Positions 1,936 through 57,515 of a stretch of DNA of 64,000 nucleotides are shown here, in pieces. The DNA is taken from assembly GCF_026626745.1 (NCBI RefSeq), contig NZ_JAPNJW010000002.1, positions 1,190,151 to 1,254,150 on the forward strand, in the 5' to 3' direction. The notes under the pieces were generated by a model. That model saw only the letters and a list, made by a program, of their open reading frames with translations, did no database searches and was not told where the DNA came from. The translations under genes and the position numbers were made by a program. Positions within the stretch are counted from its first letter, which is position 1. Each line of letters begins with the position of its first letter. The DNA is from Nannocystis sp. RBIL2 (lineage in GTDB: Bacteria > Myxococcota_A > Polyangia > Nannocystales > Nannocystaceae).

Positions 1936-2697
1936 TCACACCGCCCGCAGCACGTAGAACGAGTACCCGTAGTCCTCGGCGTGCGCGCGGAACATCGCCA
2001 CCTCCGCCTCCGTCTCGCGGATGGCCGCTCGCATCGCAGCGTCCGCCGTCTCACGGACCTCGTCCACCCGGCGCAGGCGCGGCCCGTAGTAGTTGTCCCA
2101 CCACGCTCGCGCCGGCAGCCGATGCACGCTCAGCACCGCGAACCCTGCCTCACGCGCCCGCGCGGCGTTCGTCGCCTCGGTCCCCATCGTCGGATAACCG
2201 GCCGCCCAGTACTCGCGCGCCGCCGCGGCCGGCGTCTCGGTCCACCAGCTCGCCTCCGAGATCACCGCGACCCCGCCCTGCGCCACCAGCGGTCGCCAGC
2301 GCTGCACCGCGCCCGCGAACGTCAGGTGGTACGCAGCCCCCTCCGACCACAGCAAGTCGATCGATCCCGCCGGCCAGTCGAGCGCTGCGAAGTCGGCCTC
2401 CACCGCGCGCACGAGCGACGCGAGCCCGCGCTCGTGCGCCCGCGCCTCGAGCTGGTCGAGGAACGCCCGCAGGCCATCGACCGCGATCACCGGCACCCCG
2501 AACGTCTCCGCCAGGAGCAGCGCCCCGGCCCCCGCGCCGCAGCCGAGGTCGGCGATCCGCGGCGCCTCCGGCAGCGCCGGCAAGCCCGCCAGGATCTCCC
2601 GGCTGAACTGCGGGTCTCCCGGCCCCATGCGCTCGAGCCCGCGGTGCAGCTCGATGAGCGCGGCCATCATCTCGTCTGGTGTCGGCTCGTCGGCCAT
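1936..2697 (-). CDS. class I SAM-dependent methyltransferase
   Basis: ORF 1936..2955, internal Met MADEPTPDE at 2697; glycine-rich SAM motif LGCGAGAGALLLA; the upstream part of the ORF is Arg-rich frame noise. Confidence 0.8.
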   Translation of the reverse strand: MADEPTPDEMMAALIELHRGLERMGPGDPQFSREILAGLPALPEAPRIADLGCGAGAGALLLAETFGVPVIAVDGLRAFLDQLEARAHERGLASLVRAVEADFAALDWPAGSIDLLWSEGAAYHLTFAGAVQRWRPLVAQGGVAVISEASWWTETPAAAAREYWAAGYPTMGTEATNAARAREAGFAVLSVHRLPARAWWDNYYGPRLRRVDEVRETADAAMRAAIRETEAEVAMFRAHAEDYGYSFYVLRAV

Positions 2698-3748: not shown

Positions 3749-4036
3749 ATGAAGATCGACCTGGAGAAGTTCCTCGCGGCCACCATGCTGCTCGCCACTG
3801 CCACCACCCCGGCCTGCGGCAGCAAGGACGCCAAGAAAGTCGAGACCAAGGCCGACACCAAGACCGCGGCCCCGCCGCCCGCTCAACCCCAGCCGACGCC
3901 GGCGCCGGTCGCCGCTCCGCCCGCCGCGCCCGAGGCTGCCCCGCCGGCGACCCCGCCCGCGCCCGACGCCGCCGACAAGCCCTCCGGCGCCGCCAAGCCC
4001 GACCCGGGCCCCGAGGAAGAGAAGCCGTCCTGGTGA
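3749..4036 (+). CDS. small secreted Pro/Ala-rich protein
   Basis: AAGGAG-like RBS aaggagacagcgATG; N-terminal hydrophobic signal MKIDLEKFLAATMLLATATTPACGS; (A/P)-rich low-complexity body. Confidence 0.55.
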   Translation: MKIDLEKFLAATMLLATATTPACGSKDAKKVETKADTKTAAPPPAQPQPTPAPVAAPPAAPEAAPPATPPAPDAADKPSGAAKPDPGPEEEKPSW

Positions 4037-4042
4037 CCTTTC

Positions 4043-4160
4043 GGGCATGTCCTCTGCGACATGCCCCATCGAACCTGACCTTTTTGCCATGCCCCGAGAG
4101 CCATCCGCGCTCTCGGGGTATTGCTATCTGTCCCGCAGGCCATGTCCCGCGGGACAGCGG
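4043..4160. repeat. cluster of GGACATGYCC-family elements plus palindrome CCGAGAGC-N7-GCTCTCGG
   Basis: GGGCATGTCC, GCGACATGCCCC, CCATGCCCC and TGTCCCGCGGGACA fill the whole 3'-3' intergenic space. Confidence 0.75.
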
Positions 4161-10783: not shown

Positions 10784-10797
10784 CCTGGCCATCCGGC

Positions 10798-10860
10798 CAT
10801 GTCCTCTCCGACATTTTTAAGAGGACATGCTCCACCGAGCATGTCCTTTTAAACCTGTCC
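10798..10860. repeat. cluster of GGACATGYCC-family elements
   Basis: CCATGTCCTC, GAGGACATGCTC-cacc-GAGCATGTCC and CCTGTCC between genes; local GC drop (tttttaa, ttttaaa). Confidence 0.75.
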
Positions 10861-11100
10861 TCGTGGGCACCGGGCCGCGAGGGCGACAGCTCGTGGACCC
10901 GCCCAGCGAGCGCGCTCGTCGGACTTCCGCGATGCGACTTCAGGTCGCCATCGCCGGCAGCTCCACCGAGACCCTCGCCTCGGACCGCGCGATCGCCTGC
11001 GTCGCTTCGGGGCTCACTGGCTCGCGCGGCTCCGAGCAACCCGGCGCTCCCGGCCACCCGTCCCGCCGGCACCTCGACGAAGGCCGCCGGCCGCGGTTAG

Positions 11101-12120
11101 ATGCCTCCCGTGCGCGACCCGCGGGTGCTCACGGCTGGCCTGGCGGCCGCTCTCGCCTGCGGGGAGCCGGCGCCCGCTGCTGCGCCCGAGGAGGACGCGC
11201 CCGCACCGACCTCGCGCCCCGCCCCGCGCCCACTCGTCCACCTCGATCCGCTCGGCCCCCGCGACCTCGACCCCGCGCGCGGGTCCTCGCCTCGCCTCAC
11301 CGTCCACCTCGAGCCGGTCGACGCCCGCGACCTCGACCTCCTGGCGCGCTGGCCCTCGCTCGCGCACTACCCCCGTGTCCCGCAGGTGCTCGCCGCCGGC
11401 CTGCGCGCGCGCGACCCCGCCGCGATCTTCCGCGGCATGGAGCTCGCCTTCGAGCCCGATCGCTGGGCCGAGATCGACGCCTGGGAGCGCCTCGGCCACA
11501 TCCGCCTCGGCGATCCCGCCGGCTTCTGCCGCACCGACGCCGGCAGCCCCGTGCGGCTGTCCCCTGGGACATACGACCTCGGCTGCCTCGGCGGCTTCCT
11601 CGAGGGCGTCCGCCTGCTGTGGTTGCCGCGACTCGAGCTCGCGGACCTCGTGCCCTGCGATCCGCCCGCCGGCTTCGAGTCGTGCCAGGACGGCGCCCAC
11701 GCCGGCCGCGCCGCCCTCCTGCAGATAGCGGCGCGCCTGCCCGCCGATGACCTCCCCCACGGCCTCGAGCTGCTCGAGCTGCGCCTCGCCGAGCTCGGCC
11801 CCGACGCCTTGATCGCCGCCCTCGTCCCCGACGCGCTCAACCTCTGCAGCGTCTCGCACCGGGCCCGCGCCCGCGGCGGCGAGCGCATGTACCATCACAT
11901 GATGATCGTCGACCCCGCCCGCGATCGCCTCGGCCGCGTGCGCGTGTTCGACACCACCGGCGCCGCCGGCGTCGCCTGGCGGTCGATGCGACCCGAGCGC
12001 CTGCACGGCTACGCGCGCCGCCTCCTGGCCCTCCACGACACCTTCCGCTACGACCCCGAGTCCGCCCGGCTCACCTGCCTCCCCGTGCGCCCGCCGGACG
12101 GCGAAATCACAGGTCCTTGA
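11101..12120 (+). CDS. hypothetical protein, probable lipoprotein
   Basis: Strong GC3 codon bias in the + frame; N-terminus MPPVRDPRVLTAGLAAALACG; the overlapping minus-strand ORF 11014..12036 is a low-complexity shadow. Confidence 0.55.
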   Translation: MPPVRDPRVLTAGLAAALACGEPAPAAAPEEDAPAPTSRPAPRPLVHLDPLGPRDLDPARGSSPRLTVHLEPVDARDLDLLARWPSLAHYPRVPQVLAAGLRARDPAAIFRGMELAFEPDRWAEIDAWERLGHIRLGDPAGFCRTDAGSPVRLSPGTYDLGCLGGFLEGVRLLWLPRLELADLVPCDPPAGFESCQDGAHAGRAALLQIAARLPADDLPHGLELLELRLAELGPDALIAALVPDALNLCSVSHRARARGGERMYHHMMIVDPARDRLGRVRVFDTTGAAGVAWRSMRPERLHGYARRLLALHDTFRYDPESARLTCLPVRPPDGEITGP

Positions 12121-12131
12121 GGACAGGTCCC

Positions 12132-12716
12132 ATGCGCCAGGTGCGAAAGTACATCCTCCGCCTCCTCGCCGTCCTGTGCGTCTGGGGCCTCGTCCATCTG
12201 CTCGTCATCGCCGTCGACGGCTGCACTGACGAGGGCCGCCCCGCCGACGTCGCGGTCGTCCTCGGCAACCACGTCAGCCCCGCCGGCGAGCCCGCGCGCC
12301 GCCTCCAGCTGCGGCTCGATCGCGCCGCCGCCCTGTACGCCGCAGGCCTCGTCCCGCGCCTCATCGTCAGCGGCGGCCAGGATCCCGGCAGCCCGCACGA
12401 GGCCGACGTCATGCGCGACTACCTGGTCGCCCGCGGCGTCCCGGCCGAGCGGATCGCCGTCGACCGCGGCGGCATCAACACCCACGCCACCGCCCGCTTC
12501 GTCGCCGCCGACCTGCGCGCCCGCGGCGAGCGCTCCGCCATCGCCGTCAGCCAGTACTACCACGTCACCCGCACCAAGCTGGCGCTGCGCCGCTTCGGCG
12601 TCGAGGCCACCGGCGCGCACGCCGACCTCGAGCTCGAGCTGCGCGAGCCGTGGTCGTTGCTGCGCGAGGTCATCGGCTTCTACGCCTACCTGTTCAAGGA
12701 CTACCGCCTCGAATAA
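12132..12716 (+). CDS. YdcF/ElyC-like DUF218 family protein
   Basis: ORF 12117..12716; Met MRQVRKY at 12132; DUF218-like AVVLGNHVSPAG...RLIVSGGQ. Confidence 0.7.
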   Translation: MRQVRKYILRLLAVLCVWGLVHLLVIAVDGCTDEGRPADVAVVLGNHVSPAGEPARRLQLRLDRAAALYAAGLVPRLIVSGGQDPGSPHEADVMRDYLVARGVPAERIAVDRGGINTHATARFVAADLRARGERSAIAVSQYYHVTRTKLALRRFGVEATGAHADLELELREPWSLLREVIGFYAYLFKDYRLE

Positions 12717-12719
12717 ACG

Positions 12720-12752
12720 GAGAGGACATGTCCGTATGAACATGCCCTCTCG
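12720..12752. repeat. GGACATGYCC-family element
   Basis: AGAGGACATGtccgtatgaaCATGCCCTCT inverted repeat between convergent genes. Confidence 0.7.
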
Positions 12753-12769
12753 AACAGCCCGAGGGTGAC

Positions 12770-15703: not shown

Positions 15704-16246
15704 TCAGTGGAACTCCACCACGAGCCGGTTGGGGTCGCCGTCGTTCGTCACGTCGACGTAGTAGAGGTCGCCGGGCGCCATCACCCCGCCGATCAGCACG
15801 CCGCGCTCGATCGTCTTGTCGAACGGCGTGGACGAGCGGATCACGGCGTGGCCGCGGTCCGAGTCGAACTCGGCGAGGTCGAACGAGCCGACCACCTCGC
15901 GCGGGCCACGGATGACGCTGGCGATGCCGTGGCTGCCGGTCTGAAAGTGCAGGAAGTCGGCGCCGCGGTGGATGAGCGCCTTGCCGGGCCCGCCGTGGTA
16001 CCACAGCCGCATCATCTCGATGCCGAGCTTGAGCCGGATCGGCTCCACGTTGGCGTACGACTCGCCGACCATCCGCTCGATCTCCATCCACTTCGACAGC
16101 GGGAACCACCGCCCCATGTCGATGTCGGCCAGCAGCGCGGTGGCTCGTCGACCGGCGACGATGTTGAGGTTGACGCACGCCTGGGCGAAGCCGCCCATGA
16201 GCGCCCCGTGGACCACCGGCTCGCTCGGCTCGCTCTCGCCGCTCAT
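15704..16246 (-). CDS. hypothetical 180-aa sensor-like protein (tentatively H-NOX/V4R-like fold)
   Basis: ORF 15704..17299 trimmed to MSGESEPSEP (upstream part is frame noise overlapping the real GRAS gene); ATG overlaps the upstream stop (ATGA); spacing of hydrophobic residues and an IRSST segment are reminiscent of H-NOX YxSxR proteins, but this is not proven. Confidence 0.45.
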   Translation of the reverse strand: MSGESEPSEPVVHGALMGGFAQACVNLNIVAGRRATALLADIDMGRWFPLSKWMEIERMVGESYANVEPIRLKLGIEMMRLWYHGGPGKALIHRGADFLHFQTGSHGIASVIRGPREVVGSFDLAEFDSDRGHAVIRSSTPFDKTIERGVLIGGVMAPGDLYYVDVTNDGDPNRLVVEFH

Positions 16247-17337
16247 CCCGCCTCCCCCGAGAACGCGAACACCGCGATGATCGGCACCCCGCGGTAGGAC
16301 AGCCGCACGAGCCCGGAGCTGACCGAGGAGCGGCAGTACTCGGGCAGATCGACGTCGAGGTCGATCGCCGGGTACGGCACGAAGCCCGACTTCTTCAGCC
16401 GGAGCAGCCACGACTCGAGCGTCTCGTGACGCTCGGTGCGGAAGGCGTCGCTGGTGCCGAGGATGTCGCGGACCTCGCGGCCGAAGAAGCCCTCCTTGAT
16501 GGCGAACTTCTCGTCCGGGGACGCGTCGCTGCGGTCGACCAGATCGAACACCGTCGCGAAGTGCTGCCAACAGTGATGCATGCGCCGGGTCAGGTGCTCG
16601 GTGTCGTGGTCCGAGCTCGGCTCCACCAGCGTGAACACCCGCGGCCTCAGGGCCCGCAGCCGCCGCAGCAGGCGGGTGCGCGCGTCGCTGTCGGGGCCCG
16701 TGGTGTGGTGCAGCGTGTAGGCCGCGTTGATCGACAAGCTCCCCTCGGCGAGCGCCTCGAAGTGCGCGTAGTCGGCATCCTCGCAGACCTCGATCAGCTT
16801 GACCAGCGGATAGATCTCGATGTCGAACGGCAGCTCGGCGCGGACCTCGTCGATCGCGGCCACGCCCTCGTTCAGGGCGGTGCGGTTCGGCTCCAGCGCG
16901 ATCACGCGGAGGCGCTCGATCTTGCCGGGATCGCGCGCGAGCGCCCGCAGCAGCGCGACGATCTGCAGGCCCTTGCCGATCCCGATCTCGAGCAGCGCCG
17001 GCGTGCTCGACTGCCGCATCGCGTGAACGAGGTACTGGTTGGCCAGCGCGTAGCCCTGCGGCACCGCCGGGATCGCCCGCTGCAGCAGCGTGAACAGGTC
17101 GATCTGCGGCCGCTTCTCGGCTTGCAGGTACAAGTTCCGCCCCGACAGCAGGTTGCGGTCGATCCGTCGCAACAGCGACTCGGCGACGATGTGGGACAAC
17201 AGCGCGTCGCTCGGGACATCGACGTCGAGGGCGTCGAGGAGCTGGCTCGCTATCACCGTCTTGGCGACCTGCTCGCGATGCCGGCGAATGTCCTGGCACG
17301 CGGCCAAAATCAGCTTGTAGCGGTCCTCGTAGAGCAT
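16243..17337 (-). CDS. bacterial GRAS-family protein (Rossmann methyltransferase-like fold)
   Basis: ORF 16243..17484 trimmed to ATG MLYEDRYKLIL at 17337; LEIGIGKGLQ nucleotide-binding-like motif; C-terminal RTERHETLESWLLRLKKSGF resembles the GRAS RVER/SAW region. Confidence 0.55.
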   Translation of the reverse strand: MLYEDRYKLILAACQDIRRHREQVAKTVIASQLLDALDVDVPSDALLSHIVAESLLRRIDRNLLSGRNLYLQAEKRPQIDLFTLLQRAIPAVPQGYALANQYLVHAMRQSSTPALLEIGIGKGLQIVALLRALARDPGKIERLRVIALEPNRTALNEGVAAIDEVRAELPFDIEIYPLVKLIEVCEDADYAHFEALAEGSLSINAAYTLHHTTGPDSDARTRLLRRLRALRPRVFTLVEPSSDHDTEHLTRRMHHCWQHFATVFDLVDRSDASPDEKFAIKEGFFGREVRDILGTSDAFRTERHETLESWLLRLKKSGFVPYPAIDLDVDLPEYCRSSVSSGLVRLSYRGVPIIAVFAFSGEAG

Positions 17338-17631
17338 GCGCCGCAGACTGAAGGTCACACAGGGGATCCGCCTTGGCAAGCTGATGCGCACCCGATCGTG
17401 GCCGAGAAGATTATCTCGGCCCTCGCGCGGAAACGCGCCGCGTAGCCTGGCGCAGGCCCCGTCGGCCTCTGTCTCAAAGACCACCCAGCGGCGCTACCGG
17501 ACCGCGGGCCACTGCGCAGGTCGCGTGCGGCAGAGGACCGCGACGGCGTGCGACGGACTGCATCTTGAGACATGGTCCGAAAACCATGACGCGGCGCGGC
17601 GAACCGGGCCAAAGTGGCACGAAAGCAGGCC

Positions 17632-19092: not shown

Positions 19093-19569
19093 GTGAAGAA
19101 GACCGACAAGACCGCGACGAAGGACGGCCACATCTTCGTCCAGAACCGCCGAGCCACCTTCGAGTACGAGGTCCTCGAGCGCTACGAGGCCGGCCTCGCG
19201 CTCATGGGCAGCGAGGTCAAGTCGATCCGCGACGGCCGCGCCAGCCTGGGCGAGTCGTACTGCCAGTTCCAGGGCGACCAGCTCTTCCTCTATCAATCGC
19301 ACATCGGCGAGTACACGCAGGCGCACGACCGCAACCACCTGCCGCTGCGCCCGCGCAAGCTGCTGCTGCACCGCAAGGAGCTCGACCACCTGACCGAGGC
19401 GGTCGACCAGGCCGGGCTCACGCTGATCCCGCTCGCGCTGCTGGCCCGCAACGGCCGGATCAAGCTCGAGATGGCGCTGTGCCGCGGCAAGAAGACCTAC
19501 GACAAGCGGGCCTCGATCAAGGAGCGCGAGCAGAAGCGCGAGATCGACAGGGCCATGCGGGAGCGGTGA
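19093..19569 (+). CDS. smpB: SsrA-binding protein SmpB
   Basis: GTG start; HIFVQNRRATFEYEVLERYEAGLALMGSEVKSIR...LLLHRKELDHL is the canonical SmpB sequence. Confidence 0.95.
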   Translation: MKKTDKTATKDGHIFVQNRRATFEYEVLERYEAGLALMGSEVKSIRDGRASLGESYCQFQGDQLFLYQSHIGEYTQAHDRNHLPLRPRKLLLHRKELDHLTEAVDQAGLTLIPLALLARNGRIKLEMALCRGKKTYDKRASIKEREQKREIDRAMRER

Positions 19570-19570
19570 C

Positions 19571-20314
19571 GTGAGCGGCCGGCGCTCGGACGGACCTGTC
19601 CCATCGGACACCCTCGCGGCCCTCGACCGCGCCCGCGACCAGGCCGGCCCGCACCTCTGGTTGGTCCCCACTCCGCCCGCCACCGGCGACGCCGACGACG
19701 CCCTGCGCGAGCTCGACGACCTGCTCGCCCGCGGCGAGTTCGACGAGCCCGCCGTCGCCCGCCTGGTGGCCCTGGCGCCGCGCGCCCCGGGCCGCCTGCG
19801 GGCCGTCGTGGCCGCCCTCGCGGCCGCAGGCAGCCCCGCCGCGGTGGCCGGCCTGCTCACCCTGCCGCAGGTCCCCGGCGCGCTCGAGGCGGCCGCCCGG
19901 GCCCTCGCCCGCGGCCTCACCCGCGCCCTGCCCGGCTCCGCCGCGGCGCCGGTGTTCTTCGCCCTCGACTTCCGCGGCTCGCGAGCGCGGCCGTTCCCGG
20001 ACCTGCTGCGGCGCGCCCAGCTGGTCGCCGCCGATCCGAGCGGCGCCCTCCGGCTCGACGTCCTCCGCGTCGACGGCAAGCCCGCCTACCGCCTGTCCTT
20101 TTGGCCAGACACGATCCCGCCGCGCCCGCGCGCCGAGCTCGCCCGCGCCTGCGCCGCCGACCTCGCGCTGCTCCACGGCCGCCTCGCGCGCCTCCGCGGC
20201 GCCCGCCTGTGGCTGAACGGCTTCTGCTTCCCTGACGACGGCCCGGTGTCGGTCGCCGCTCAGGGCCACCTGCTGGTCGCGTGGCTGACATGGTCTGAGG
20301 GACATGCCCCGTGA
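19571..20314 (+). CDS. hypothetical protein
   Basis: GTG start 1 nt after the smpB stop; high GC3; no recognisable motif. Confidence 0.5.
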   Translation: MSGRRSDGPVPSDTLAALDRARDQAGPHLWLVPTPPATGDADDALRELDDLLARGEFDEPAVARLVALAPRAPGRLRAVVAALAAAGSPAAVAGLLTLPQVPGALEAAARALARGLTRALPGSAAAPVFFALDFRGSRARPFPDLLRRAQLVAADPSGALRLDVLRVDGKPAYRLSFWPDTIPPRPRAELARACAADLALLHGRLARLRGARLWLNGFCFPDDGPVSVAAQGHLLVAWLTWSEGHAP

Positions 20315-21807
20315 GACATGACCCGAAAGACACTCCGTTCGCGCGCGCGCGCACCCGCCTGCGCGAGGCGCTGCAGGCCGGCGCCCGCGGCCTCGGCCTG
20401 CGCGCGGTCGACGAGGCGCGGGCGCTGCGGCTGTGCGAGGACACAGGCGAGCGGCTCGACTGGCCCGTCCACACCTGGAGCGCCGCCGGCGGGCGCGACG
20501 GCCTCGGCGCGCCCGAGCCGCTGCTCGACCTCCTGCGCGGCCTCCTGCGCGACCCCGATCCCGGTCTGTGGGTGCTGCTCGATCCGCCCCCGCTCGAGCC
20601 CGTCGCCCTGCGGGCCCTCCGCGAGCTCGCGCAGCGCAGCGTCGGTCCCGCGGTCGTCGTCGTCGGCGACCTCGCGCCTGCGCTCGTCGCCATCCCCGAG
20701 CTCGAGCTGCTGGAGCTCGAGCTGCCCGACACCGACGAGCTCACCGGCCTCGCGGCCGACCTCGTCGACGAGCTGCGGATCGCCGGCCGCCCCGGCCCCG
20801 CCGCCGCGCTCGACCGTCGCGCGCCGCAGCTCGCCCACGCCGCTCTCGGCCTGTCCGAGCACCAGGCCCGTCGACTGCTGCGCCGCGCCGCCCACGTCCC
20901 CGCCGACGACGCCGCGCTCGCCGAGCTGGGCGCCGGCAAGGCCGAGCTGCTGCGCCGCGGCGGCCTGCTCGAGCGCGTCGAACCTGTCTCTTCAGACATG
21001 CTCGGCGGCCTCGCGCAGCTCAAGCAGTGGCTGGCCCGCCGCGCGCTCGCCCTCCGCCCCGAGGCCCGCGCCGCGGCGATCCCCGACCCCCGCGGCGTCC
21101 TGCTCGTCGGCGTGCAGGGCTGCGGCAAGAGCCTGGCCGCCCGCGTCTGCGCCCACGCGCTCGGCCTCGGCCTCCTGCGGCTGGAGCCGGGCCGGCTCTA
21201 CGGCGGCACGCTCGGCGAGAGCGAGGCCAACCTGCGCCGCGTCACCGCGACGGTCGAGCGCATCGCTCCGGTCGCGCTGTGGATCGACGAGCTCGACAAG
21301 GGCCTGGCCGGCAGCGAGGGCCCGGCGAGCGACGGCGGCACCGCGGCGCGAGTGCTGGGCGGGCTGCTGACGTGGCTGCAGGAGCGCCGACGTCCGGTGT
21401 TCGTGGTCGCCACCGCCAATCAGGTCACGCGCCTGCCGCCCGAGCTGACACGTCGGGGCCGTCTCGACGAGATCTTCTTCGTCGACCTGCCCGACGCGGA
21501 CGAACGCGCTGCCATCGCGGAGATCCATCTCGAGCATGCGCCCCGCTCGCACATGGGCGCCGCCCCGGTCCTCGCTGATCCGTTGCCCGACCTCGTCGAC
21601 CTCGTACGCGCGGCCGACGGACTCTCGGGCGCCGAGATCGAGGGCGCGATCGTGGAAGCTCGCCTCGACGCGTTCGCCGAGTCGCGACCGCTCGCGCGCC
21701 GCGACCTCGCTCGCGCGCTCACCGCGACCATCCCGTTGAGTCGCAGTCGTGCCGGCGAAATCACGGCCCTGCGTGCGTGGGCGAGCGCTGCGGCCCGCAG
21801 GGCTTGA
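20311..21807 (+). CDS. classic-clade AAA+ ATPase with N-terminal domain of unknown function
   Basis: GTG start overlaps the upstream stop (GTGA); Walker A GVQGCGKS, Walker B ALWIDELD, second region of homology TRRGRLDEIFFVDLP; no GAFTGA motif, so not a sigma54 activator. Confidence 0.85.
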   Translation: MRHDPKDTPFARARTRLREALQAGARGLGLRAVDEARALRLCEDTGERLDWPVHTWSAAGGRDGLGAPEPLLDLLRGLLRDPDPGLWVLLDPPPLEPVALRALRELAQRSVGPAVVVVGDLAPALVAIPELELLELELPDTDELTGLAADLVDELRIAGRPGPAAALDRRAPQLAHAALGLSEHQARRLLRRAAHVPADDAALAELGAGKAELLRRGGLLERVEPVSSDMLGGLAQLKQWLARRALALRPEARAAAIPDPRGVLLVGVQGCGKSLAARVCAHALGLGLLRLEPGRLYGGTLGESEANLRRVTATVERIAPVALWIDELDKGLAGSEGPASDGGTAARVLGGLLTWLQERRRPVFVVATANQVTRLPPELTRRGRLDEIFFVDLPDADERAAIAEIHLEHAPRSHMGAAPVLADPLPDLVDLVRAADGLSGAEIEGAIVEARLDAFAESRPLARRDLARALTATIPLSRSRAGEITALRAWASAAARRA

Positions 21808-22915: not shown

Positions 22916-23098
22916 GTGTCCCGCGCGCGCAACCTCGCCCAGCAGCAGCTCGAGCTGCCCGCGCTGGACGAGCCTGTCGCCGTCGCCGACCTGCCCGAGC
23001 CGACCCCCGCGGCCGCCTGCGCGCGCTGCGGCTGGCTGGTGCGCCAGGCCGAAGAGACATGTCCTTTGTGCCATGCCCCGAAGGACAGCAAGCCATGA
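22916..23098 (+). CDS. small zinc-ribbon-like protein (60 aa)
   Basis: GTG start; good GC3; CARCGW...ETCPLCHA; its last 14 codons are supplied by a GGACATGTCC-type palindromic element; stop overlaps the next ATG (ATGA). Confidence 0.35.
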   Translation: MSRARNLAQQQLELPALDEPVAVADLPEPTPAAACARCGWLVRQAEETCPLCHAPKDSKP

Positions 23099-24265: not shown

Positions 24266-24839
24266 GCCCGAGCGCCGGCGCCCGGTCCGCTGGCGGCCCT
24301 GGCTGCGCGCCCTCCACCGCGACATAGGCTACGTCGCCGTCGGCCTCACCTTCGTCTACGCGCTGTCGGGCCTCGCGGTCAATCACATCGCCGACTGGGA
24401 CCCGAACTTCGACAACTACGAGGCGCGCCACCAGGTCGCCGTGCCGCTGCCCGAGGACGACCGCGCCGCCGCCGACAAGGTCCTCGCCGAGCTCTCCATC
24501 CAAGACCCGCCGACCGAGGTCTACCGCAGCGACGCGCGCGAGCTGTCGATCCTCCTCGACGGCAGCACCCTCCACGTCGACCTCGACAGCGGCGTCGTCC
24601 TCGAGGACGGCCAGCGCCCGCGCCTCTTGCTGCGCGTCGCCAACTGGCTGCACCTGAACCGCGGCAAGAAGGCCTGGACCTACATCGCCGACGGCTACGC
24701 CGTGTTCCTGCTGTTCCTCGCCGCCTCGGGCCTGTTCATGTTGCCCGGCCGCAAGGGCCTGGTCGGCCGCGGCGGCGTGCTCGTGCTGCTCGGGATCGCC
24801 GTCCCCGTGCTGTACGTGACCCTGTCCGGCGGGCCATGA
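24258..24839 (+). CDS. PepSY-associated TM-helix membrane protein (partner of the MsrP-like gene)
   Basis: ATG overlaps the upstream stop; WLRALHRDIGYVAVGLTFVYALSGL is a typical PepSY_TM helix; second TM near the C-terminus. Confidence 0.65.
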   Translation: MPEPERRRPVRWRPWLRALHRDIGYVAVGLTFVYALSGLAVNHIADWDPNFDNYEARHQVAVPLPEDDRAAADKVLAELSIQDPPTEVYRSDARELSILLDGSTLHVDLDSGVVLEDGQRPRLLLRVANWLHLNRGKKAWTYIADGYAVFLLFLAASGLFMLPGRKGLVGRGGVLVLLGIAVPVLYVTLSGGP

Positions 24840-24845
24840 CCCCAA

Positions 24846-24898
24846 GGACATGCCCCTTCGGGCATGTTCAAGAGGGCATGCCCTTACGGACATGCCCT
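24846..24898. repeat. cluster of four GGACATGCCC / GGGCATG half-sites
   Basis: AAGGACATGCCCcttcGGGCATGTTCaAGAGGGCATGCCCttacGGACATGCCCTCT. Confidence 0.75.
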
Positions 24899-24920
24899 CT
24901 TGTTCATTCCCCTCCGCGGT

Positions 24921-28423: not shown

Positions 28424-29000
28424 CCTGTCCTCTCGGGCCAGCCTCAGACGCGCGCCCTCAGGACGTCGCCTCACCTGTTCCTGAGGTCCTGTCCTTTCGA
28501 ACAGCCTCTCGCGCGTTCTAGCGACGTCATCTCGCGGAACCCGGAGTCTGCCGACACAGCGCCTGTCCTTTCGACCAGCCTCACGAGCTCTCGAGACCGC
28601 CGAGGTACCGGTCGCATCGCTATCTCACTCGGAGCTCGGACTCTGCCCGGCACCCTTCTGTCCTCTCGACCAGCCTCACGCGCGATCCTCGGACGTCACC
28701 TCACTCGGAACTCGGACTCTGCCCGGCACCCTCCTGTCCTCTCGACCAGCCTCACGCGCGCTCCTCGGACGTCACCTCACTGGGCACTCGGACTCTGCCC
28801 GAAGCACACCTGTCCTTTCGACCATCACGCGCGTGCTGCAGGCGTCATCTCACGCGGAACTCGGAGCCTGCACGTCGAGCTCCTGTCCTTTCGACCAGCC
28901 TCCCGCGCGCGCCCCCGAGATGTCCGCCGCACGCCTGAGCCTGCCTGACGACGTCCTGCCCTTCTCACAGTCTCACGTACGCACCCGCCGGACGTCGCCT
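28424..29000. repeat. degenerate intergenic tandem array, about 8 units of 65-95 nt, each beginning CCTGTCCTYTCGAMCAGCCTC
   Basis: Read directly: units start at about 28424, 28488, 28562, 28657, 28733, 28809, 28883, 28956; units 4 and 5 are about 90% identical; no ORF with coding-like codon usage. Confidence 0.8.
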
Positions 29001-30780: not shown

Positions 30781-30995
30781 CGATATCTGTCCCTCAGGAC
30801 ATCTCGCTGCGGCGTCGGCCCTGCGATGTCAGATGTCCCGAAGGGCATTTCGCTGCGGCGTCAGCCCTGCGATGTCAGATGTCCCGAAGGGCATTTCGCT
30901 GCGGCGTCAGCCATGCCGCTGACGGCCCCACGCGACCTGTCCTTCGAGCCAGCTCGCGGCAGCCGGCCGGCCTGCCGCGAGCTCCTCGACCTGTG
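30755..30995. repeat. 25-bp direct repeat (CCTGCCGCGAGCTCCTCGACCTGTG) flanking a 191-bp insert with an internal 48-bp tandem duplication
   Basis: Copy 1 at 30755-30779 is the last codons of pepF; copy 2 at 30971-30995; the insert carries GGACA/TGTCC palindromes and two copies of CGCTGCGGCGTCAGCCCTGCGATGTCAGATGTCCCGAAGGGCATTT. Confidence 0.8.
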
Positions 30996-30997
30996 GC

Positions 30998-32233
30998 TCA
31001 CTCGTACGCCGTCACGTACATGTGATAGGTCTCGAAGTCGACCGCGCCGGACGCGAAGATCGTCCCCGCGTCGTCGATCGCCACGTCGACCTCCCATGAC
31101 CCGCTGTCGCAGCGGTGCGCCGCCAGCGTCGCGCCGGACGGGTCGAGCCGCGCCACCATCCCGCGGAACGGCGTGTCGTTGTTGTGGTGGCCGCCGACCG
31201 CGATCTCGCCGCTCGCGTTGACCGCGAGGTCGCCGAAGCTCCACATGTCCTCGACATGCGTGTCCCACAGCGGCGTCCCGTCGGCCGCGAACTTCTCGAT
31301 CCTCACTCCCGACGACCCGATCTGAGCCCCGACCACCACCGCGCCCGCGCCGTCGATCGCCGCCGTGCTGAGCACCGAGAGCTCCCACGGGCGCGTCCAC
31401 AGCTCCTCGCCGGACGGGTCGAGCAGCCGGACGCCCTCGTTCCACACCAACGCCACCATCGTGCCCGCCGACCCGATCGCCGCCACCTCGAGTTGGTCCG
31501 CGACCTCGAGGTCCCACAGCAGCGTCCCGTCGGCCGCGTGCTTGACCATCCGCGTCCCGTCGCCGACGGCAGCGCGGTCGCTGTACACCGTCGTCCCGTC
31601 GGCCGCGATCGCTACGCCGTAGCCCGACCAGAAGCCCTGATCGCTCGGTCCCAGGTCGCTCTCCCACAGCATCGTCCCCGCCGGGTCGAACTTGCGCAGC
31701 CACTTCCGCGGCGACACGCCGCCCTCGTCGCGGAACATCGCGTAGCCGTTGCCCGCCGCGTCGATGTCCCAGTAGATCGCACCCGACGGGATCGGCAATG
31801 TCGCCACCAGCGTCCCTGCCGCGTCGAACTCGCGCGTCAGACCGTCGCTGAACACCCGCGCCCGCCCGTCGGCCGCGAGCGACACCTTGCCCGCGCCGCT
31901 GGTCTCCGGATTGACGAACAGCCACGCGCCGCCCTCGCACGCGAAGTCCTCCGGCGTCGACCCCGAGTCGGTGTCGTGCCCTCCCGATGTCGTCTCGGTC
32001 GTCGCGTCGCCCGGATCGTCGGTCGTCTCGTCCGGTCCGCCGGTCGTCTCCGGCACGCCGGTCGTCCCCTCGCTGTCAGTCCCGCCGCCCCCCGACGTCC
32101 CGTCGCTGTCGCTCCCGCCCGTGGTCGTCCCCGCGCTGAGCGTCCCGCCCGTGACCCCCGGGTCCTTCGGATCGCAACCTGTCACAACAGCCATGAATCC
32201 AAGGACATGTCCAATATACCATGTTCTAAGCAT
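30998..32233 (-). CDS. lipoprotein with beta-propeller-like repeats
   Basis: ORF 30998..32272, Met MLRTWYIGHVLGFMAVVTGC at 32233 (lipobox VTGC) preceded by GAGGAG RBS; Thr/Gly-rich linker, then repeated WD/PQQ-like blades. Confidence 0.7.
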   Translation of the reverse strand: MLRTWYIGHVLGFMAVVTGCDPKDPGVTGGTLSAGTTTGGSDSDGTSGGGGTDSEGTTGVPETTGGPDETTDDPGDATTETTSGGHDTDSGSTPEDFACEGGAWLFVNPETSGAGKVSLAADGRARVFSDGLTREFDAAGTLVATLPIPSGAIYWDIDAAGNGYAMFRDEGGVSPRKWLRKFDPAGTMLWESDLGPSDQGFWSGYGVAIAADGTTVYSDRAAVGDGTRMVKHAADGTLLWDLEVADQLEVAAIGSAGTMVALVWNEGVRLLDPSGEELWTRPWELSVLSTAAIDGAGAVVVGAQIGSSGVRIEKFAADGTPLWDTHVEDMWSFGDLAVNASGEIAVGGHHNNDTPFRGMVARLDPSGATLAAHRCDSGSWEVDVAIDDAGTIFASGAVDFETYHMYVTAYE

Positions 32234-32758
32234 ACTTTTCTCCTCGCTCGCGGCCGCCGAGGCCGTCCGCAATTCCTGGTTCGTCGCCCCATGACGGTGC
32301 AGCGCCGGCCGGCCCCAGACCGGTCCTGTCGGCTGCCCACGAGCGGGCCCGCGCGTCGCCCCGGAGCATCTTCGGGCCGATCCGACCTGAACCTGCCTCT
32401 TCGGTCAGCCTCGGCCTCGCGGAGCCCGCCGTCGTGCGCGCCTGCCTCCTCGGCAGCGAACTCCCGGCGACCCTCTCCGCGCGGAGACTCGTCACCGTGA
32501 ATCGCAGCCCGGAGCGACGCCGCATCTGCCGCTTCCGCAAGCAATTCCCGCACCTCCCGATCCTCACGAAAATCCCTAATCCTCTCGAAGATCGTTCGTG
32601 CGCGCGTAAGTCCCATCACGACCGCCGCGTCCGACCCAGCCGGCGCCGCGCCCGTCGCGAGTCCGGAGGGTCATGTCTCCGAGGACAGCTCGTGGGCGCC
32701 GCCGGCCCCGGTCCCCACCTCTTGCGCCGCTCGCCCGCGCTCGCGCATCCTTCGCCCC

Positions 32759-40195: not shown

Positions 40196-41103
40196 AGATC
40201 CTGATCACCGGCATCAACGGCGCCCACGCGCGCATGGTCGCCCTGCGCCTGCGCGCCCGCGGCGACGAGATCCTCGGCATCGACCGCCGCCCCTGGCCCG
40301 ACGCGCCCGAGGGCGTGCACGTGTTCCAGACCGACGTGCGCAAGCGGCCGGCCGCCGACGTGTTCCGCCAGCACCGGCCCGACGTCGTCATCCACATGGC
40401 GACGATCACTCACTTCACCGCCAGCGCCGAGGAGCGGCTGCGCATCAACCTCCACGGCACGCGCCTCGTGTTCGAGTACTGCCACGAGTTCGGCGTCAAG
40501 CAGGCCGTGTTCGTCGGCCGCCACACGATCTACGGCGCCGCCCCCGACGCGCCGCTGTACCGCACCGAGGAGGAGCCGCCGCTGGCCGTCTCGACCTTCC
40601 CCGAGCTGGCCGACCTCGTCGCCGCCGACCTGTTCGCCGCCGCCGCGCTGTGGCGCTGGCCCGGGCTCAAGACCGCCGTCCTGCGCATGGTCTACATGCT
40701 CGGCCCGACGCACCGCGGCACCCTCGCCAGCTTCCTCGCCGGCCCGCGGGTGCCGATGATCCTCGGCTTCGATCCGCTCTACCACTTCATGCACGACGAG
40801 GACGGCGTCGAGGCGATCGTGCGCGCCGTCGATCACCAGCTCAACGGGATCTACAACGTCGCCGGCCCGCCGCCCGTCCCGCTGTCGACGCTGGCCCGCG
40901 GCACCGGCCGCCAGCCGATCCCGATCCCCGAGCCGCTCTTCAAGTACAGCGCCGGCCGCTTCGGCCTGCCCTACCTGCCGCCCGGCGCCGTCGCCCACAT
41001 CAAGCACCCGATCGTCGTCGACGCCACCGCCTTCCGCCGCGCCACCAACTTCGAGCACAAGCACGACGCCCACGCCGTCATGGTCAGCTTCCGCGAGTCC
41101 TGA
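40192..41103 (+). CDS. NAD-dependent epimerase/dehydratase family protein
   Basis: ATGA overlap with the upstream gene; MKILITGINGAHARMVALRL Rossmann start; SDR-like body. Confidence 0.75.
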   Translation: MKILITGINGAHARMVALRLRARGDEILGIDRRPWPDAPEGVHVFQTDVRKRPAADVFRQHRPDVVIHMATITHFTASAEERLRINLHGTRLVFEYCHEFGVKQAVFVGRHTIYGAAPDAPLYRTEEEPPLAVSTFPELADLVAADLFAAAALWRWPGLKTAVLRMVYMLGPTHRGTLASFLAGPRVPMILGFDPLYHFMHDEDGVEAIVRAVDHQLNGIYNVAGPPPVPLSTLARGTGRQPIPIPEPLFKYSAGRFGLPYLPPGAVAHIKHPIVVDATAFRRATNFEHKHDAHAVMVSFRES

Positions 41104-41150
41104 AGGACATGTCGCGGTGGACATGTCGTGACAGACATGTCCCTCAGGAC
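41104..41150. repeat. cluster of GGACATGTC elements
   Basis: AGGACATGTCgcggtGGACATGTCgtgacAGACATGTCCCTCAGGAC. Confidence 0.75.
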
Positions 41151-41878
41151 CCGCGGTAGGTCCCCGGCCGGTAGCGCAGCAGCGCCACCTCGAACGCCTC
41201 GAAGTGCTCGGCCAGCAGCTCGACCCGGCGCACCAGCACCGCCAATTCGACCGGTGCCAGCCGCGGACCCCGTCCCGCCGCGCGCCTGGCCGGCAGCGCG
41301 GGGTTGTCCACGGGGCCGTCCGCCGGGCCGGCGTCGAGCGCCTCGCCGAGCAGCACCGCCTCGACGTCATGGGTCGAGATCCCGACGTGGGCGATCAGCT
41401 CGCGCTCCTCGGGCCCGAGCTCGCGGACGCTGCGGATCCAGCTCCACACCCAGGCGTCGATCGCCGCGTCGGCCGGGTCGGCGGCCTCGACCGCGAGCCG
41501 CAGCGCGCGTGTCTCTCGGGCCAGCTCGGCCACGCGAGGCGGCAGGTGGTCGAGGGCCAGCGCCGCGTCTGCGCCCGCCAGCGCTTGCCGCTCCATCATC
41601 GGCAGCGGGCGAGCGAGCACCCCGGAGAACGACGCGAACGCGATCGTCCCCAGCGTGCTCGCGAAAAACACCAGCTCGAGCGGGTCAAACACCCCACGGA
41701 TGAGCGCGGTGACGACGACCGCGATCGTCGACACGACCGCCCAGATCGCCAGGATCTTCGCTCGCCGGCGGCGCTCGAGCCGACGCGTCTCGATCGCCGC
41801 AGCGAGCCGCTGGTGGCGAGCGGTGCGCGTCTGCGCACGAATGCTAATCGCCGCCTCGTCGCCTCGATCACCTGGCAC
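41144..41878 (-). CDS. hypothetical membrane protein (two N-terminal TM helices)
   Basis: GTG start; TM segments ILAIWAVVSTIAVVVTALI and LVFFASTLGTIAFASF; the plus-strand ORFs here are Arg/Pro-rich shadows. Confidence 0.5.
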   Translation of the reverse strand: MPGDRGDEAAISIRAQTRTARHQRLAAAIETRRLERRRRAKILAIWAVVSTIAVVVTALIRGVFDPLELVFFASTLGTIAFASFSGVLARPLPMMERQALAGADAALALDHLPPRVAELARETRALRLAVEAADPADAAIDAWVWSWIRSVRELGPEERELIAHVGISTHDVEAVLLGEALDAGPADGPVDNPALPARRAAGRGPRLAPVELAVLVRRVELLAEHFEAFEVALLRYRPGTYRGS

Positions 41879-42813: not shown

Positions 42814-43695
42814 GTGCCCAGCGGCGCGTCTCCCCTCGCTCGCCCGGTCGCCGTCGTCGGCGCCGGCTTCCTCGGCGCCCCCGTCGCTGCCGCGCTCGCG
42901 GCGACCGGGGGCGCTGGCGATCCGCCTGTCCTTGCGACCACGCGCTCCGGGACATGGCCCAACGGACATGTCCCGGAGGGCATCGAGCTCCGCCCGCTCG
43001 ACGTCGCCGCGCTCACCCCTGCCGACATCGCCGCGGTCCTCGCCGACGCGCGTGCGCTGGTCGTCTGCTACGCCCCCGGCCAGCAGCAGGACCGCCGCGA
43101 GCTCTACGTCGAGGGCACCCGTCGGCTGCTCGCGGCCGCAGTCACCCTCCCGCTCACCCGCCTCGTCTACGTCTCATCCACCTCGGCCCTGCCCGACCGC
43201 GATGGCTGGCTCGACGACGACTGCCTCGAGTGGCCCGAAGAGCCGCGGGGCCGCGTGCAGCGCGAGGCCGAGGAGCTGGTGCGCGACACCTGCACGCGCC
43301 ATGCGGTGCCGTGGACGATCCTCCGTCTCGGCGGCCTCTACGGTCCGGGTCGCGAGCTGTTCCGCCTCTACCGCGGCGCCGGCGACGACGCAGTCCTGGC
43401 GGGCGACGGCATGCAGCCGACCAACCTCATCCACTGCGAGGACGCAGTGCAGGCCGTCCTCGCCGCCTTGACCCTCGCGCCGGACGAGCGCGGCGTCATC
43501 AACGTCGTCGACGACGACCACACCCCGCGGCGTGAGATCTTCGCTCGCCTCGCCGCCCTCGCCGGACGGCCGCCCCCCCGATGGGAGCGGCCCGCGGGTC
43601 CGGCCGCGATCGGCAAGCGGGTCGGCAACGCGCGCCTGAAGACGCTGCTGCGCGTGGCCCTCCGGCATCCCTCTCACACCCCGGCGAGCCCCTGA
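42814..43695 (+). CDS. NAD(P)-binding Rossmann-fold protein (SDR/epimerase-like)
   Basis: GTG start at 42814 in the frame of ORF 42250..43695; VAVVGAGFLG motif; carries an in-frame hairpin element at 42947-42976. Confidence 0.6.
   Translation: MPSGASPLARPVAVVGAGFLGAPVAAALAATGGAGDPPVLATTRSGTWPNGHVPEGIELRPLDVAALTPADIAAVLADARALVVCYAPGQQQDRRELYVEGTRRLLAAAVTLPLTRLVYVSSTSALPDRDGWLDDDCLEWPEEPRGRVQREAEELVRDTCTRHAVPWTILRLGGLYGPGRELFRLYRGAGDDAVLAGDGMQPTNLIHCEDAVQAVLAALTLAPDERGVINVVDDDHTPRREIFARLAALAGRPPPRWERPAGPAAIGKRVGNARLKTLLRVALRHPSHTPASP
42947..42976. repeat. perfect 10-bp stem hairpin CCGGGACATG-N10-CATGTCCCGG inside a CDS (in-frame)
   Basis: Encodes SGTWPNGHVPEG within the NAD(P)-binding protein. 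Confidence 0.75.
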
Positions 43696-45125: not shown

Positions 45126-45662
45126 ATGGCCGCCCCACCCGAACCCACACGCGGACCGCGGATCGCCCTCGCAGCGGTGATCGCCGGTCTCAGCCTCGGC
45201 CTCGACCTTTGGAGTAAGGCGTGGGTCTGGAACAATTTGCGGGACCAGGCCGCCTGGAAGGTCAGCGACAAGCTGCTGCACTTCGACTTCGCCTGCAATC
45301 CCGGCTCTGCCTTCGGCTTCCTCAACGACGTCGACTGGGCGCGCTACTTCTTCATCGTCATCACCCTGGCCGCGGTCGGCTACCTCGTCCACCTCGCGCG
45401 GACCTTGCCGACCACCAGCCGGGCCGCCTTCATCGCCATCGGCCTGATCGCCGGCGGCGCCCTCGGCAACCTGCACGACCGCCTGGTCCGGGTCTACGCC
45501 GGCGACTACTGCGTGGTCGACTTCATCGTCGTCTACCTGTGGGGCGGCAAGACCTGGCCGGCCTTCAACATCGCCGACGCCGTCCTGGTCGCGGGCGTGC
45601 TGTTGTTCCTGCTCGTGCTGCCGCGCACCGAGGCCGCCGCCGACAATCGGACCGCCGCCTGA
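45126..45662 (+). CDS. lspA: lipoprotein signal peptidase II, copy 1
   Basis: ORF 45048..45662, Met MAAPPEP at 45126; LspA signatures NPGSAFGF, GGALGNLHDRL, FNIADA; 4 TM segments. Confidence 0.85.
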   Translation: MAAPPEPTRGPRIALAAVIAGLSLGLDLWSKAWVWNNLRDQAAWKVSDKLLHFDFACNPGSAFGFLNDVDWARYFFIVITLAAVGYLVHLARTLPTTSRAAFIAIGLIAGGALGNLHDRLVRVYAGDYCVVDFIVVYLWGGKTWPAFNIADAVLVAGVLLFLLVLPRTEAAADNRTAA

Positions 45663-45985
45663 GCCTCGTGCGGCCCCAAGCGTCGAGGCAACCATCTGCC
45701 TGAGTCTCTTGCGGCCACCCCCGACAATCGGACCTCCGCCTGAGCCGCGAGCTCTCGCGCCGCGAGGCAGCCGTCATCGGACCTTCGCCCGGACCCTCGA
45801 GCTGCCCCTCAGGGCACCGAGGCGGCGCCCGACAATCGGGCCTCAGCCTGAGCCATGAGCTCTCGCCCCGAGGCAGCCGTCATCGGACCTTCGCCCGAAC
45901 CATCGAGCTCCCGCCCCAGGGCACCGCGGCCACCCCCGGACCTCCCCTCAGCCTCGAGCTCCCGCTCCGGACCTGCCTCGTCCTG
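45636..45985. repeat. tandem repeat (about 110 nt x2 plus partial copies) seeded from the 3' end of lspA copy 1
   Basis: CCGACAATCGGACC(G/T)CCGCCTGAGCC occurs at 45643 (last codons of lspA), 45722 and 45836; full units 45717-45828 and 45829-45934. Confidence 0.8.
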
Positions 45986-46160
45986 CTGCGCCCCGGGCCG
46001 CCGCCGGTCGAACCCGCCAGAGCACCGCGGCAACCGCGCTACCGAACCCGCAACCCTGCCCGGCAGCCCTTCGGACCGTCTCTGCGGCCCGCGGCGCAGC
46101 GGTGGCTGCGCTTGCTCGCCCTGGTGCCTCGGGTACACTGGCCAGGTTTTTCGGCCCTAC

Positions 46161-57426: not shown

Positions 57427-57465
57427 TGTCCTGAGGGACATGTCCTCACGGGCATGTCCCTCGGC
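57427..57465. repeat. GGACATGYCC-family element
   Basis: CTGTCCtgaGGGACATGTCCtcacGGGCATGTCCC downstream of the DUF4388 gene. Confidence 0.75.
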
Positions 57466-57515
57466 ACCTGCTCCCGAGCACCTGGCCGAACAAACCTGGC
57501 CGATCGGACAGCCCC

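Follow-up and report, generated by a model that had tools for sequence, protein, structure and literature searches.

Can a short repeat provide the stop and start codons of translationally coupled genes? This question is raised by a stretch of 64,000 nucleotides from Nannocystis sp. RBIL2 (assembly GCF_026626745.1, contig NZ_JAPNJW010000002.1, positions 1,190,151 to 1,254,150 of the forward strand), here called the window, in which a 14-bp palindromic unit, TGYCC-N4-GGRCA, is iterated and touches several gene junctions. In the original prediction, made from the letters of the window, such copies were said to contribute the punctuation at these junctions and to have been co-opted into, or to be selected at, operon joints. 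A repeat creating operon punctuation would have been notable, but the claim does not hold. The unit belongs to a palindrome family which is real and restricted to Nannocystis. Its main habitat is just past or on stop codons, above all in convergent gaps. With about even confidence, we explain it as an iterated palindrome resembling the repetitive extragenic palindromic (REP) sequences and the cyanobacterial palindrome HIP1, acting as a putative hairpin at the 3' ends of genes.

Nannocystis genomes are larger than 12 Mb, and to our knowledge their regulatory grammar is essentially unstudied. The data comprised the window and about 20 kb from each relative; the close relatives are not independent of each other. 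Gene models of the window were built by ourselves with a codon log-odds score and greedy selection; starts are approximate and were checked by homology where important. The G+C content is about 72% all along the window. Its SmpB (19093-19569) is 97% identical to the SmpB proteins of N. pusilla and N. exedens, and the ECH protein encoded at 61543-62319 matches a protein of Nannocystis sp. ILAH1 with 100% identity.

Unit, abundance and distribution

All five sequences quoted in the original prediction were found in the window at the positions given for them, and the half-sites TGTCC and GGACA are common to them. Units frequently follow each other head to tail, and the joint between two units, GGRCA:TGYCC (the colon marks the boundary), yields CATG. 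The position profile is symmetric, with GGAC(A/C):TGYCC-Y..R-GGRCA:(T/G)(G/C)YCC as the extended form.

Exact copies of TGTCC-N4-GGACA occur 11 times in the window, compared with 0.03 expected from dinucleotide shuffles, and 45 copies are found if up to one mismatch is accepted (1.7 in shuffles). The 10-mer GGACATGTCC is present four times (0.03 in shuffles). In-phase arrays of at least two units number 21 versus 0.31 in shuffles, those of at least three units 12 versus 0. For lone units matching at 9 of 10 positions, about nine per window are produced by chance alone. Standing by themselves, 14-mers are common and 10-mers are rare.

The range of the family was determined at the smpB loci (20 kb each). 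Per 10 kb, 5-12 units were counted in Nannocystis genomes and in the majority of Nannocystis metagenome-assembled genomes (MAGs), with the MAG L011 as low-density exception. The count was 0-1.6 for Enhygromyxa, other Nannocystaceae and all else. The literature in the searchable library was screened for the motif, and for REP-like elements in Nannocystis or myxobacteria, and no relevant description was found. The two-unit pattern gave zero matches in viral contigs, and scans of the window with Rfam (gathering threshold) and for tRNA and tmRNA gave no match. Tandem Repeats Finder (TRF) is blind to the 14-bp arrays because the spacers differ among units.

Position of the arrays

In our gene model of the window, arrays lie in 7 of the 9 gaps between convergent genes, 2 of the 8 between divergent genes and 11 of the 43 between co-directional genes; one of the latter 11 is actually inside ECH1, the true start of which is GTG 63071. 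An array starts no more than 20 nt past a stop codon, or over it, in 18 of 61 genes. Arrays no more than 20 nt upstream of a start were detected for 6 of 61 genes, and four of these six are the next gene after an array-bearing stop. In long co-directional gaps the array adjoins the upstream stop (3 nt behind it at 10786, 7 nt at 57427, overlapping it at 28412). The stop codon itself is part of about one third of the stop-proximal arrays. It either makes up part of a variant arm, TGAcc (at 4034 and 24837), or is placed within the spacer, (T)CC-nTGA/TGAr-GGACA (12118, 20312, 41101 and, on the other strand, 41144). The main arrays and hairpins are the following (z, folding compared with shuffles):

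4034-4156, unstranded: arrays of five and two units filling a convergent gap; the stop TGA 4034-4036 is the left arm TGAcc
10786-10869, + strand: six-unit array, 3 nt past the stop of an S9-peptidase-like gene and 241 nt before the next gene
10816-10853, within the 10786-10869 array: hairpin with a 16-bp stem, A-tract and T-tract; z of the array -7.1
12720-12751, unstranded: hairpin built from the element in the gap where the DUF218 and adenylate-cyclase genes converge
24823-24906, unstranded: six-unit array filling the convergent gap between PepSY-like and DLH genes; the stop TGA 24837-39 is the arm TGAcc
24869-24902, within the 24823-24906 array: hairpin with a 14-bp stem; z of the array -5.4/-5.8
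41096-41151, unstranded: four-unit array spanning a 40-nt convergent gap; both gene stops lie in unit spacers (cTGAa; cTGAg on the - strand)
57427-57482, + strand: four-unit array, 7 nt past a stop; hairpin with a 12-bp stem at 57433-57462

Hairpin formation

The joint 10-mer is its own reverse complement, so that adjacent joints pair automatically. Beyond this, the outer N4 spacers flanking joint pairs are complementary at a mean of 2.0 of 4 positions, compared with 1.17 in shuffles (P ~0.0006), and at least three complementary positions were counted in six cases versus 1.7 expected. Arrays of at least two units, aided by complementarity of their outer spacers, fold into hairpins whose stems measure 10-16 bp, with dG values of -14 to -25 kcal/mol. 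Six of the nine intergenic hairpins with at least 10 pairs in the window are built from the element. Non-coding arrays fold better than shuffles (z -5.0 to -7.1), and the gap between the PepSY-like and DLH genes showed excess structure in seven of seven close genomes despite sequence turnover. G+C-rich hairpins soon after the stop, as is typical of terminators, were observed; the arrays close to a stop (up to 20 nt) belong to 18 of 61 genes. The output of a generic inverted-repeat search was too noisy to be used.

On the transcript, these hairpins would most likely be terminators, bidirectional ones at convergent gene pairs, and/or protectors of 3' ends. Their action can be likened to that of REP sequences and bacterial interspersed mosaic elements (BIME) or of paired uptake-sequence terminators (PMC2397512). 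Where co-directional genes are tightly packed, the word overlies coding ends and overlapping NTGA stop and start codons.

Turnover of units and spacers

Arrays are located at the same orthologous positions in six close genomes, with varying unit numbers. The non-coding N4 spacers of the window at 24837-24906, 10786-10869 and 12729-12756 were compared with those of L081, L001 and L002. Between genomes 19-31% of the spacer positions differ, often with two or three bases changed together; for the remaining intergenic sites and for third positions of these genomes the values are 4-11% and 5-11%, respectively. Odd arm variants, e.g. TGTTC, stay in place while the spacers change. Templated (quasi-palindrome) mutation is a candidate process which would explain both the multi-base changes and the complementarity of the outer spacers. 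Rapid spacer turnover beside perfect palindromes may thus offer a natural system for this kind of mutation.

One of the genomes compared, L081 (GCA_049060185.1), is a public assembly with 97% identity. Over 17 kb it shows 44 gap openings relative to the window, and its gene calls, of limited use here, are broken up, with the adenylate cyclase split, for example. Both features suggest indel errors in one of the two assemblies.

Copies inside coding sequences

In the interiors of coding sequences (CDS; more than 30 nt from gene ends) five exact copies were found, while resampling of codons with protein and codon usage fixed predicts 0.01. For the Y/R form the count is six. Codons ending in A or T account for 21% within the arms versus 6.4% overall. 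Third positions in the arms differ from six relatives at 5 of 136 sites versus about 11% elsewhere, the comparisons not being independent. The coding copies stand mainly in two reading frames (LSxGT and PVPxD); hence, they do not represent a peptide motif. The clearest coding case is:

42945-42978, + strand: near-perfect palindrome with a 14-bp stem in the epimerase CDS, encoding RSGTWPNGHVPEG with the rare codons ACA, GGA and CAT

The epimerase peptide RSGTWPxGHVPEG is conserved down to homologues with 54-58% identity. The palindrome with ACA, GGA and CAT was kept in six of seven Nannocystis-like sequences; L091 carries ACC and CCT in place of ACA and CAT. According to these alignments the peptide is ancestral and the palindrome is specific for Nannocystis. 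One pair of the stem changed from C-G to G-C via two synonymous changes, and three unpaired cases occur at this pair. An in-frame insertion comparable to Rickettsia palindromic elements (RPE) was considered as origin of this hairpin and rejected, the peptide being ancestral.

The coding copies argue for a DNA word which is read by a protein, either a dimeric binder or a modification, repair or uptake system. Hairpins would then be a by-product and arrays would be abutting sites. Such a word would be retained, or pushed to high copy number, all over the genome, like HIP1 (PMC5861425) and the DNA uptake sequence (DUS) (PMC2397512). The excess of exact coding copies, the A/T-ending codons and the low number of synonymous mismatches in the arms agree with this, as do the use of at least two reading frames, the symmetric profile with no strand signal, the isolated 14-mers as opposed to the rare isolated 10-mers, and the genus specificity of the motif. 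However, binding by a dimer leaves the excess of complementarity between outer N4 spacers unexplained, as well as the strong bias towards stop codons and convergent gaps. Furthermore, no candidate reader, methyltransferase or competence link was found among the window proteins; a single methyltransferase is encoded in the window (1936-2697), and its domain is a generic one of the small-molecule type. The evidence within coding sequences favours the protein-read word, and the positional bias and spacer complementarity favour the hairpin. We regard the word without a hairpin function as possible, if rather unlikely.

Several points weigh against the 3'-end hairpin. Single units and the hairpin with the 14-bp stem persist in coding sequences at synonymous sites. 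A terminator would be harmful there, so that the coding copies point to recognition of the word itself. Covariation in the epimerase hairpin, the one hairpin that could be aligned (8 sequences), is not significant; 168 of 500 shuffles reach the observed value. In a scan for hairpins followed by a T-tail, 12751-12720 on the - strand was the only element hairpin to pass, and the totals were not above those of shuffles. Several other hairpins have short T runs as next spacer (TGTCCTTTT, TGTCCTTTC); most are without them. An excess of G-U over A-C mismatches on the sense strand, sought as a sign of RNA hairpins, was not detected, and the profile is symmetric; A-C mismatches are, if anything, commoner than G-U, with strand composition as probable cause. 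The non-coding arms change at about the intergenic rate. The 3' bias could mirror the tolerance of such DNA instead of the site of action. Finally, the gene model is home-made and at least one start was wrong, that of ECH1.

A further reading is an undescribed word of Nannocystis, maintained by selection over coding and non-coding DNA via rare codons and recognised by a putative genus-specific reader as double-stranded DNA or as hairpin. Its arrays would double as bidirectional 3'-end hairpins, with spacers turning over several-fold faster. This is a tentative proposal in which our confidence falls short of even. If true, it would give the myxobacteria an equivalent of HIP1 or DUS whose architecture is new. 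In general, an abundant genus-specific palindrome kept at synonymous sites implies a reader or a process. Termination or RNA stability, a factor which binds or modifies DNA, and mutational drive come into question.

Three additional observations concern coding copies. The gene following smpB contains at least five in-frame 27-bp tandem repeats, CCTGTCCCCACGGACAGCC.., with the peptide PVPTDS, in L005 (10500-10640) and L007 (10500-10630), two more distant Nannocystis MAGs. These repeats are part of the N-terminal region of the orthologue of a 247-aa protein, and the window has one copy of this type at 19597-19610 (PVPSDT). The array inside ECH1 (62990-63031, three units) had been placed at a gene start in our model; the start at GTG 63071 follows from homology with L103 (MRVDCGQAEL..). 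The stop of the HMG-CoA synthase gene at 63180 is preceded by CTGTCC, where relatives have CTCAGC for the same Leu-Ser.

Gene junctions

Five copies had been placed on or near gene junctions:

12112-12139, + strand, junction 1: unit GGTCCttgaGGACA (9/10) and degenerate unit GGTCCcatgCGCCA (7/10)
20291-20332, + strand, junction 2: three in-phase units TGGTCtgagGGACA, TGCCCcgtgAGACA and TGACCcgaaAGACA (8, 9 and 8 of 10)
23046-23087, + strand, junction 3: three units (7, 8 and 10 of 10) at the 3' end of a zinc-ribbon open reading frame (ORF)
62295-62327, - strand, junction 4: lone 9/10 unit at 62295-308 (TGTCTgttgGGACA on the + strand) and half-site TGTCC at 62323-62327
32203-32212, - strand, junction 5: exact 10-mer GGACATGTCC in the plausible lipoprotein signal peptide MLRTWYIGHVLGFMAVVTGC

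At junction 1, 12112-12135 was proposed to give the stop of a lipoprotein gene and the ATG of the DUF218 gene. Both codons are indeed placed in spacers, the stop TGA 12118-12120 in the first N4 and ATG 12132-12134 in that of the degenerate unit, with GAGGA 12119-12123 8 nt upstream. But an in-frame TTG at 12117 overlaps the stop (TTGA) and rivals the ATG as start. In the corresponding spacer, three species have ATGA and one has CTGA; GTGA was found in N. pusilla and in a 97%-identical assembly. In L092 and L095, more distant metagenomic relatives, DUF218 starts at the matching ATGA, and its N-terminus MTTGP.. is homologous to (L)RTGPM.. of the window. Accordingly, the ancestral start is at 12117. 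As TTG 12117 is placed where relatives have GTGA or ATGA, the start of DUF218 is ambiguous, with TTG 12117 and, as second candidate, ATG 12132. Every relative available for comparison at this junction carries the element.

The assignment of a stop and the GTG of the AAA ATPase to 20287-20314 at junction 2 was correct. GTG 20311-20313 and TGA 20312-20314 form a GTGA overlap in the spacer of the second unit; the A of TGA mismatches the arm consensus. GAGGGA at 20297-20302 resembles a Shine-Dalgarno (SD) sequence. The units encode the end of the 247-aa protein, ..WSEGHAP followed by the stop, and (V/M)RHDPKDT of the AAA ATPase. GTGA or ATGA is found at the homologous position in L005-L007, L017 and L019. 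Relatives which lack the element have this overlap and also homologous protein ends (..AWLRHAEQAP and ..AWLRWAERGPSA, each followed by the stop); AWLRHAEQAP in L006 corresponds to AWLTWSEGHAP in the window. At the same junction, two extra 14-bp units were detected in N. punicea (L004 11197-11270) and a 65-bp duplication in N. bainbridge (L020 11200-11330). In both, the stop is parted from the start and the ancestral overlap is broken, and a duplicated (C)ATGA spacer is an in-frame start.

The units of junction 3 encode ETCPLCHAPKDS of a genuine zinc-ribbon ORF of 60 aa (22916-23098, ending with ..ETCPLCHAPKDSKP and the stop). Thus, the part of the claim on 23052-23098 which concerns the end of this protein including CPxC was confirmed, but the ATGA at 23095-23098 is outside the units, 8 nt past the last one. 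SD-like AAGGA was found at 23081-23085. Conservation across Nannocystaceae and Polyangia extends to the ORF with its second CPxC and to a GTGA overlap with the gene that follows; at the junction between the zinc-ribbon ORF and P134, GTGA is present in L005, L007, L010, L012, L015 and L018. The CPxC codons are TGC CCG CTG in L012 versus TGT CCT TTG in the window, and the match to the element was gained via codon changes to TGT CCT TTG plus an exchange of Gly for His.

At junction 4, 62300-62335 had been described as stop of ECH1 and start of ECH2. The lone unit does overlap ECH2, covering its codons 4-8 with the half-site 14 nt away, but ATGA 62316-62319 (- strand) lies between unit and half-site in non-matching sequence (5/10, counted by eye). 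The ATGA is kept in L103, an 81%-identical relative. In Pseudenhygromyxa, the sole element-free outgroup, TAG is followed by a 10-nt spacer and then ATG, with no overlap.

For junction 5, an AT-rich copy at 32203-32233 was said to encode the first half of a lipoprotein signal peptide. The exact 10-mer occupies codons 8-11 (IGHV) of the lipoprotein gene 30998-32233 (- strand), with GGAGAA upstream, but the remainder of the copy matches the consensus poorly. About 50 nt at 32190-32240, spanning the ribosome-binding site and the first 12 codons of the lipoprotein, are unusually rich in A+T for a genome with 72% G+C.

Taken together, units truly overlap the gene ends at junctions 1, 2 and 5; at junction 3 the overlap is confined to coding sequence, and at junction 4 it is weak. 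The overlap of four bases at junctions 2, 3 and 4 is an ordinary one, as is that at junction 1 should TTG 12117 be the start. At junctions 1-4 the purine-rich spacer end and the GGA of the right arm give GAGGA, GAGGGA, AAGGA or AAAGGA, 5-9 nt before the start, and may possibly double as SD sequence of the downstream gene. In folding, junctions 1-4 (z -0.7, +0.3, -1.5 and -0.2) are no better than shuffles. Their orthologues fold similarly weakly, apart from junction 2 in the two species with added units, N. punicea and N. bainbridge, and junction 3 in N. radixulma, N. punicea, N. bainbridge and L081 (z -2.5 to -4.1). The junction copies are the weakest members of the family.

Judged by the element-free relatives, the stop and start codons at 20.3 and 23.1 kb demonstrably pre-date the element, and the element came about there through base substitutions, often yielding rare codons, and not by insertion. 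The two codons persist because they fall either within the N4 spacer, which is free of constraint, or within an arm variant that is tolerated (TGAcc). The junction copies would accordingly be tolerated, weakened overlays, the right arm of which can serve as SD sequence. Their degenerate, non-folding state fits what a coupled joint can tolerate.

These results bear on the idea of an element co-opted into coupled operon joints, or selected there, as supplier of stop and start. The idea draws on the codons within units at 12.1 and 20.3 kb, on junction copies kept in six of six close genomes, on the spare ATGA spacers in the duplications of N. punicea and N. bainbridge, one of which is an in-frame start, and on the SD-like sequences formed by spacer and right arm. 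However, overlaps and CPxC are older than the element at both junctions with element-free outgroups (20.3 and 23.1 kb), where they exist without it. A unit is carried by 2 of 10 four-base overlaps (4 of 12, counting the zinc-ribbon junction and TTGA 12117) compared with 7 of 9 convergent gaps. At 23.1 and 62.3 kb the ATGA is outside any unit, and the stop at 20312 and the arm at 12112 depart from the consensus. Co-option is therefore improbable. For annotation, it is of importance that stops, starts and protein termini of Nannocystis are often within the repeat and that start calls need care (TTG 12117 or ATG 12132, GTG 20311).

Mobility and chance

A selfish mobile element of the REP type or of the type of miniature inverted-repeat transposable elements, mobilised for example by a REP-associated tyrosine transposase (RAYT/Y1), would reach the junctions by incidental insertion. 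High copy number, palindromic structure and a mostly intergenic location agree with such an element, and so do unit numbers differing by species (3 versus 5 units; 65-bp duplication) and units embedded in tandem repeats of 46 and 76 bp. However, array positions are orthologous throughout six close genomes, no presence/absence polymorphism was seen over 20 kb, and the copies at junctions and in coding sequences arose on ancestral coding sequence without change in length. As spacers vary from unit to unit, the units are no duplicates of a single master sequence. In Pfam scans, the roughly 60 proteins predicted for the window proved to be products of ordinary chromosomal genes, with no transposase among them. 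We consider mobility very improbable.

Chance look-alikes, in which an SD sequence (GGA) and the start context mimic half-sites, are hardly credible for the family: junctions 1-3 are in-phase arrays, three-unit arrays never occurred in shuffles and for the exact 10-mer at 32203 only 0.03 copies are expected, so that chance is refuted for junctions 1, 2, 3 and 5, and junction 4 alone, a lone 9/10 unit of the kind produced by chance about nine times per window, with its ATGA in non-matching sequence, still fits it.

Comparison with known repeat families

REP and BIME are short high-copy palindromes which are clustered in tandem at 3' ends, in convergent gaps and between the cistrons of operons; they form stable stem-loops and are lineage-specific. 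Like those of enterobacteria and pseudomonads, the stem-loops of the Nannocystis element are clustered in tandem. In contrast, its 14-bp unit is fully symmetric and consists of two 5-bp arms, which are fixed, around a free spacer of 4 nt, and its positions are stable across species. Furthermore, REP and BIME are strictly extragenic, whereas the Nannocystis element is also present in coding sequences, including the epimerase hairpin. Neither a RAYT (Y1 transposase) gene among the window proteins nor a GTAG-like flank or conserved cleavage tetranucleotide in the position profile was found.

HIP1 is the highly iterated palindrome GCGATCGC of cyanobacteria (PMC5861425, PMC4390886). It is over-represented by orders of magnitude and conserved within and between ORFs, and selection has been argued over neutral replenishment (PMC5861425, PMC4390886). 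Comparably, the Nannocystis element is over-represented far beyond composition and kept in ORFs beyond the need of the protein. HIP1 differs in being an uninterrupted 8-mer tied to orphan methyltransferases, for which tandem hairpin arrays at gene ends are not reported, and it is another word in another phylum.

DUS and the uptake signal sequences (USS) of Neisseriaceae and Pasteurellaceae are genus-specific, occur about once per kb in genic and intergenic DNA, and form rho-independent terminators as inverted pairs (PMC2397512, PMC3630211). The Nannocystis element, with 0.3-0.7 copies per kb, is likewise restricted to a genus and has arrays at 3' ends. In contrast, DUS and USS are no palindromes and serve DNA uptake, and 14-bp tandem phasing is not a trait of DUS.

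RPE, mentioned in PMC1779305 and PMC10969869, are palindromic repeats which become translated within proteins. RPE are insertions of about 100-150 bp which add residues, whereas the peptides encoded by the Nannocystis element are ancestral and show no change in length. The element is no insertion relative to the orthologues: the epimerase peptide is conserved down to 54-58% identity, and at junctions 2 and 3 element-free relatives have homologous protein ends. With regard to translational coupling by NTGA overlap, the element junctions are ordinary, with conserved overlaps.

Further repeats and genes in the window

Units are also associated with longer tandem repeats. A 76-bp repeat is situated at 28424-28909 in the 650-nt gap after a TetR gene (TRF: 28624-28909, 3.8 copies, 83%); earlier copies begin at about 28424, and each copy opens with CCTGTCCTyTCGACCAGCCTCAC, a degenerate unit. 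After an M3 peptidase gene, a 46-bp repeat (30788-30916, 2.8 copies, 92% matches) contains one unit (TGTCCcgaaGGGCA) per copy. Two LspA (Peptidase_A8) paralogues at 45177-46745 are separated by a 498-nt gap with a 106-bp tandem repeat (45720-45930) and one perfect unit at 45803. A 132-bp tandem repeat (54303-54747, 3.4 copies, 89% matches) was identified within the large ORF 53853/53925-56105, the uncertain start of which coincides with units at 53840-53881. At 16243-17358 (- strand), a bacterial GRAS-domain protein (Pfam PF03514, E 1e-35) is encoded in an operon with a SpoIIE-type phosphatase; the genes of this operon have 4-base overlaps with no elements at the joints.

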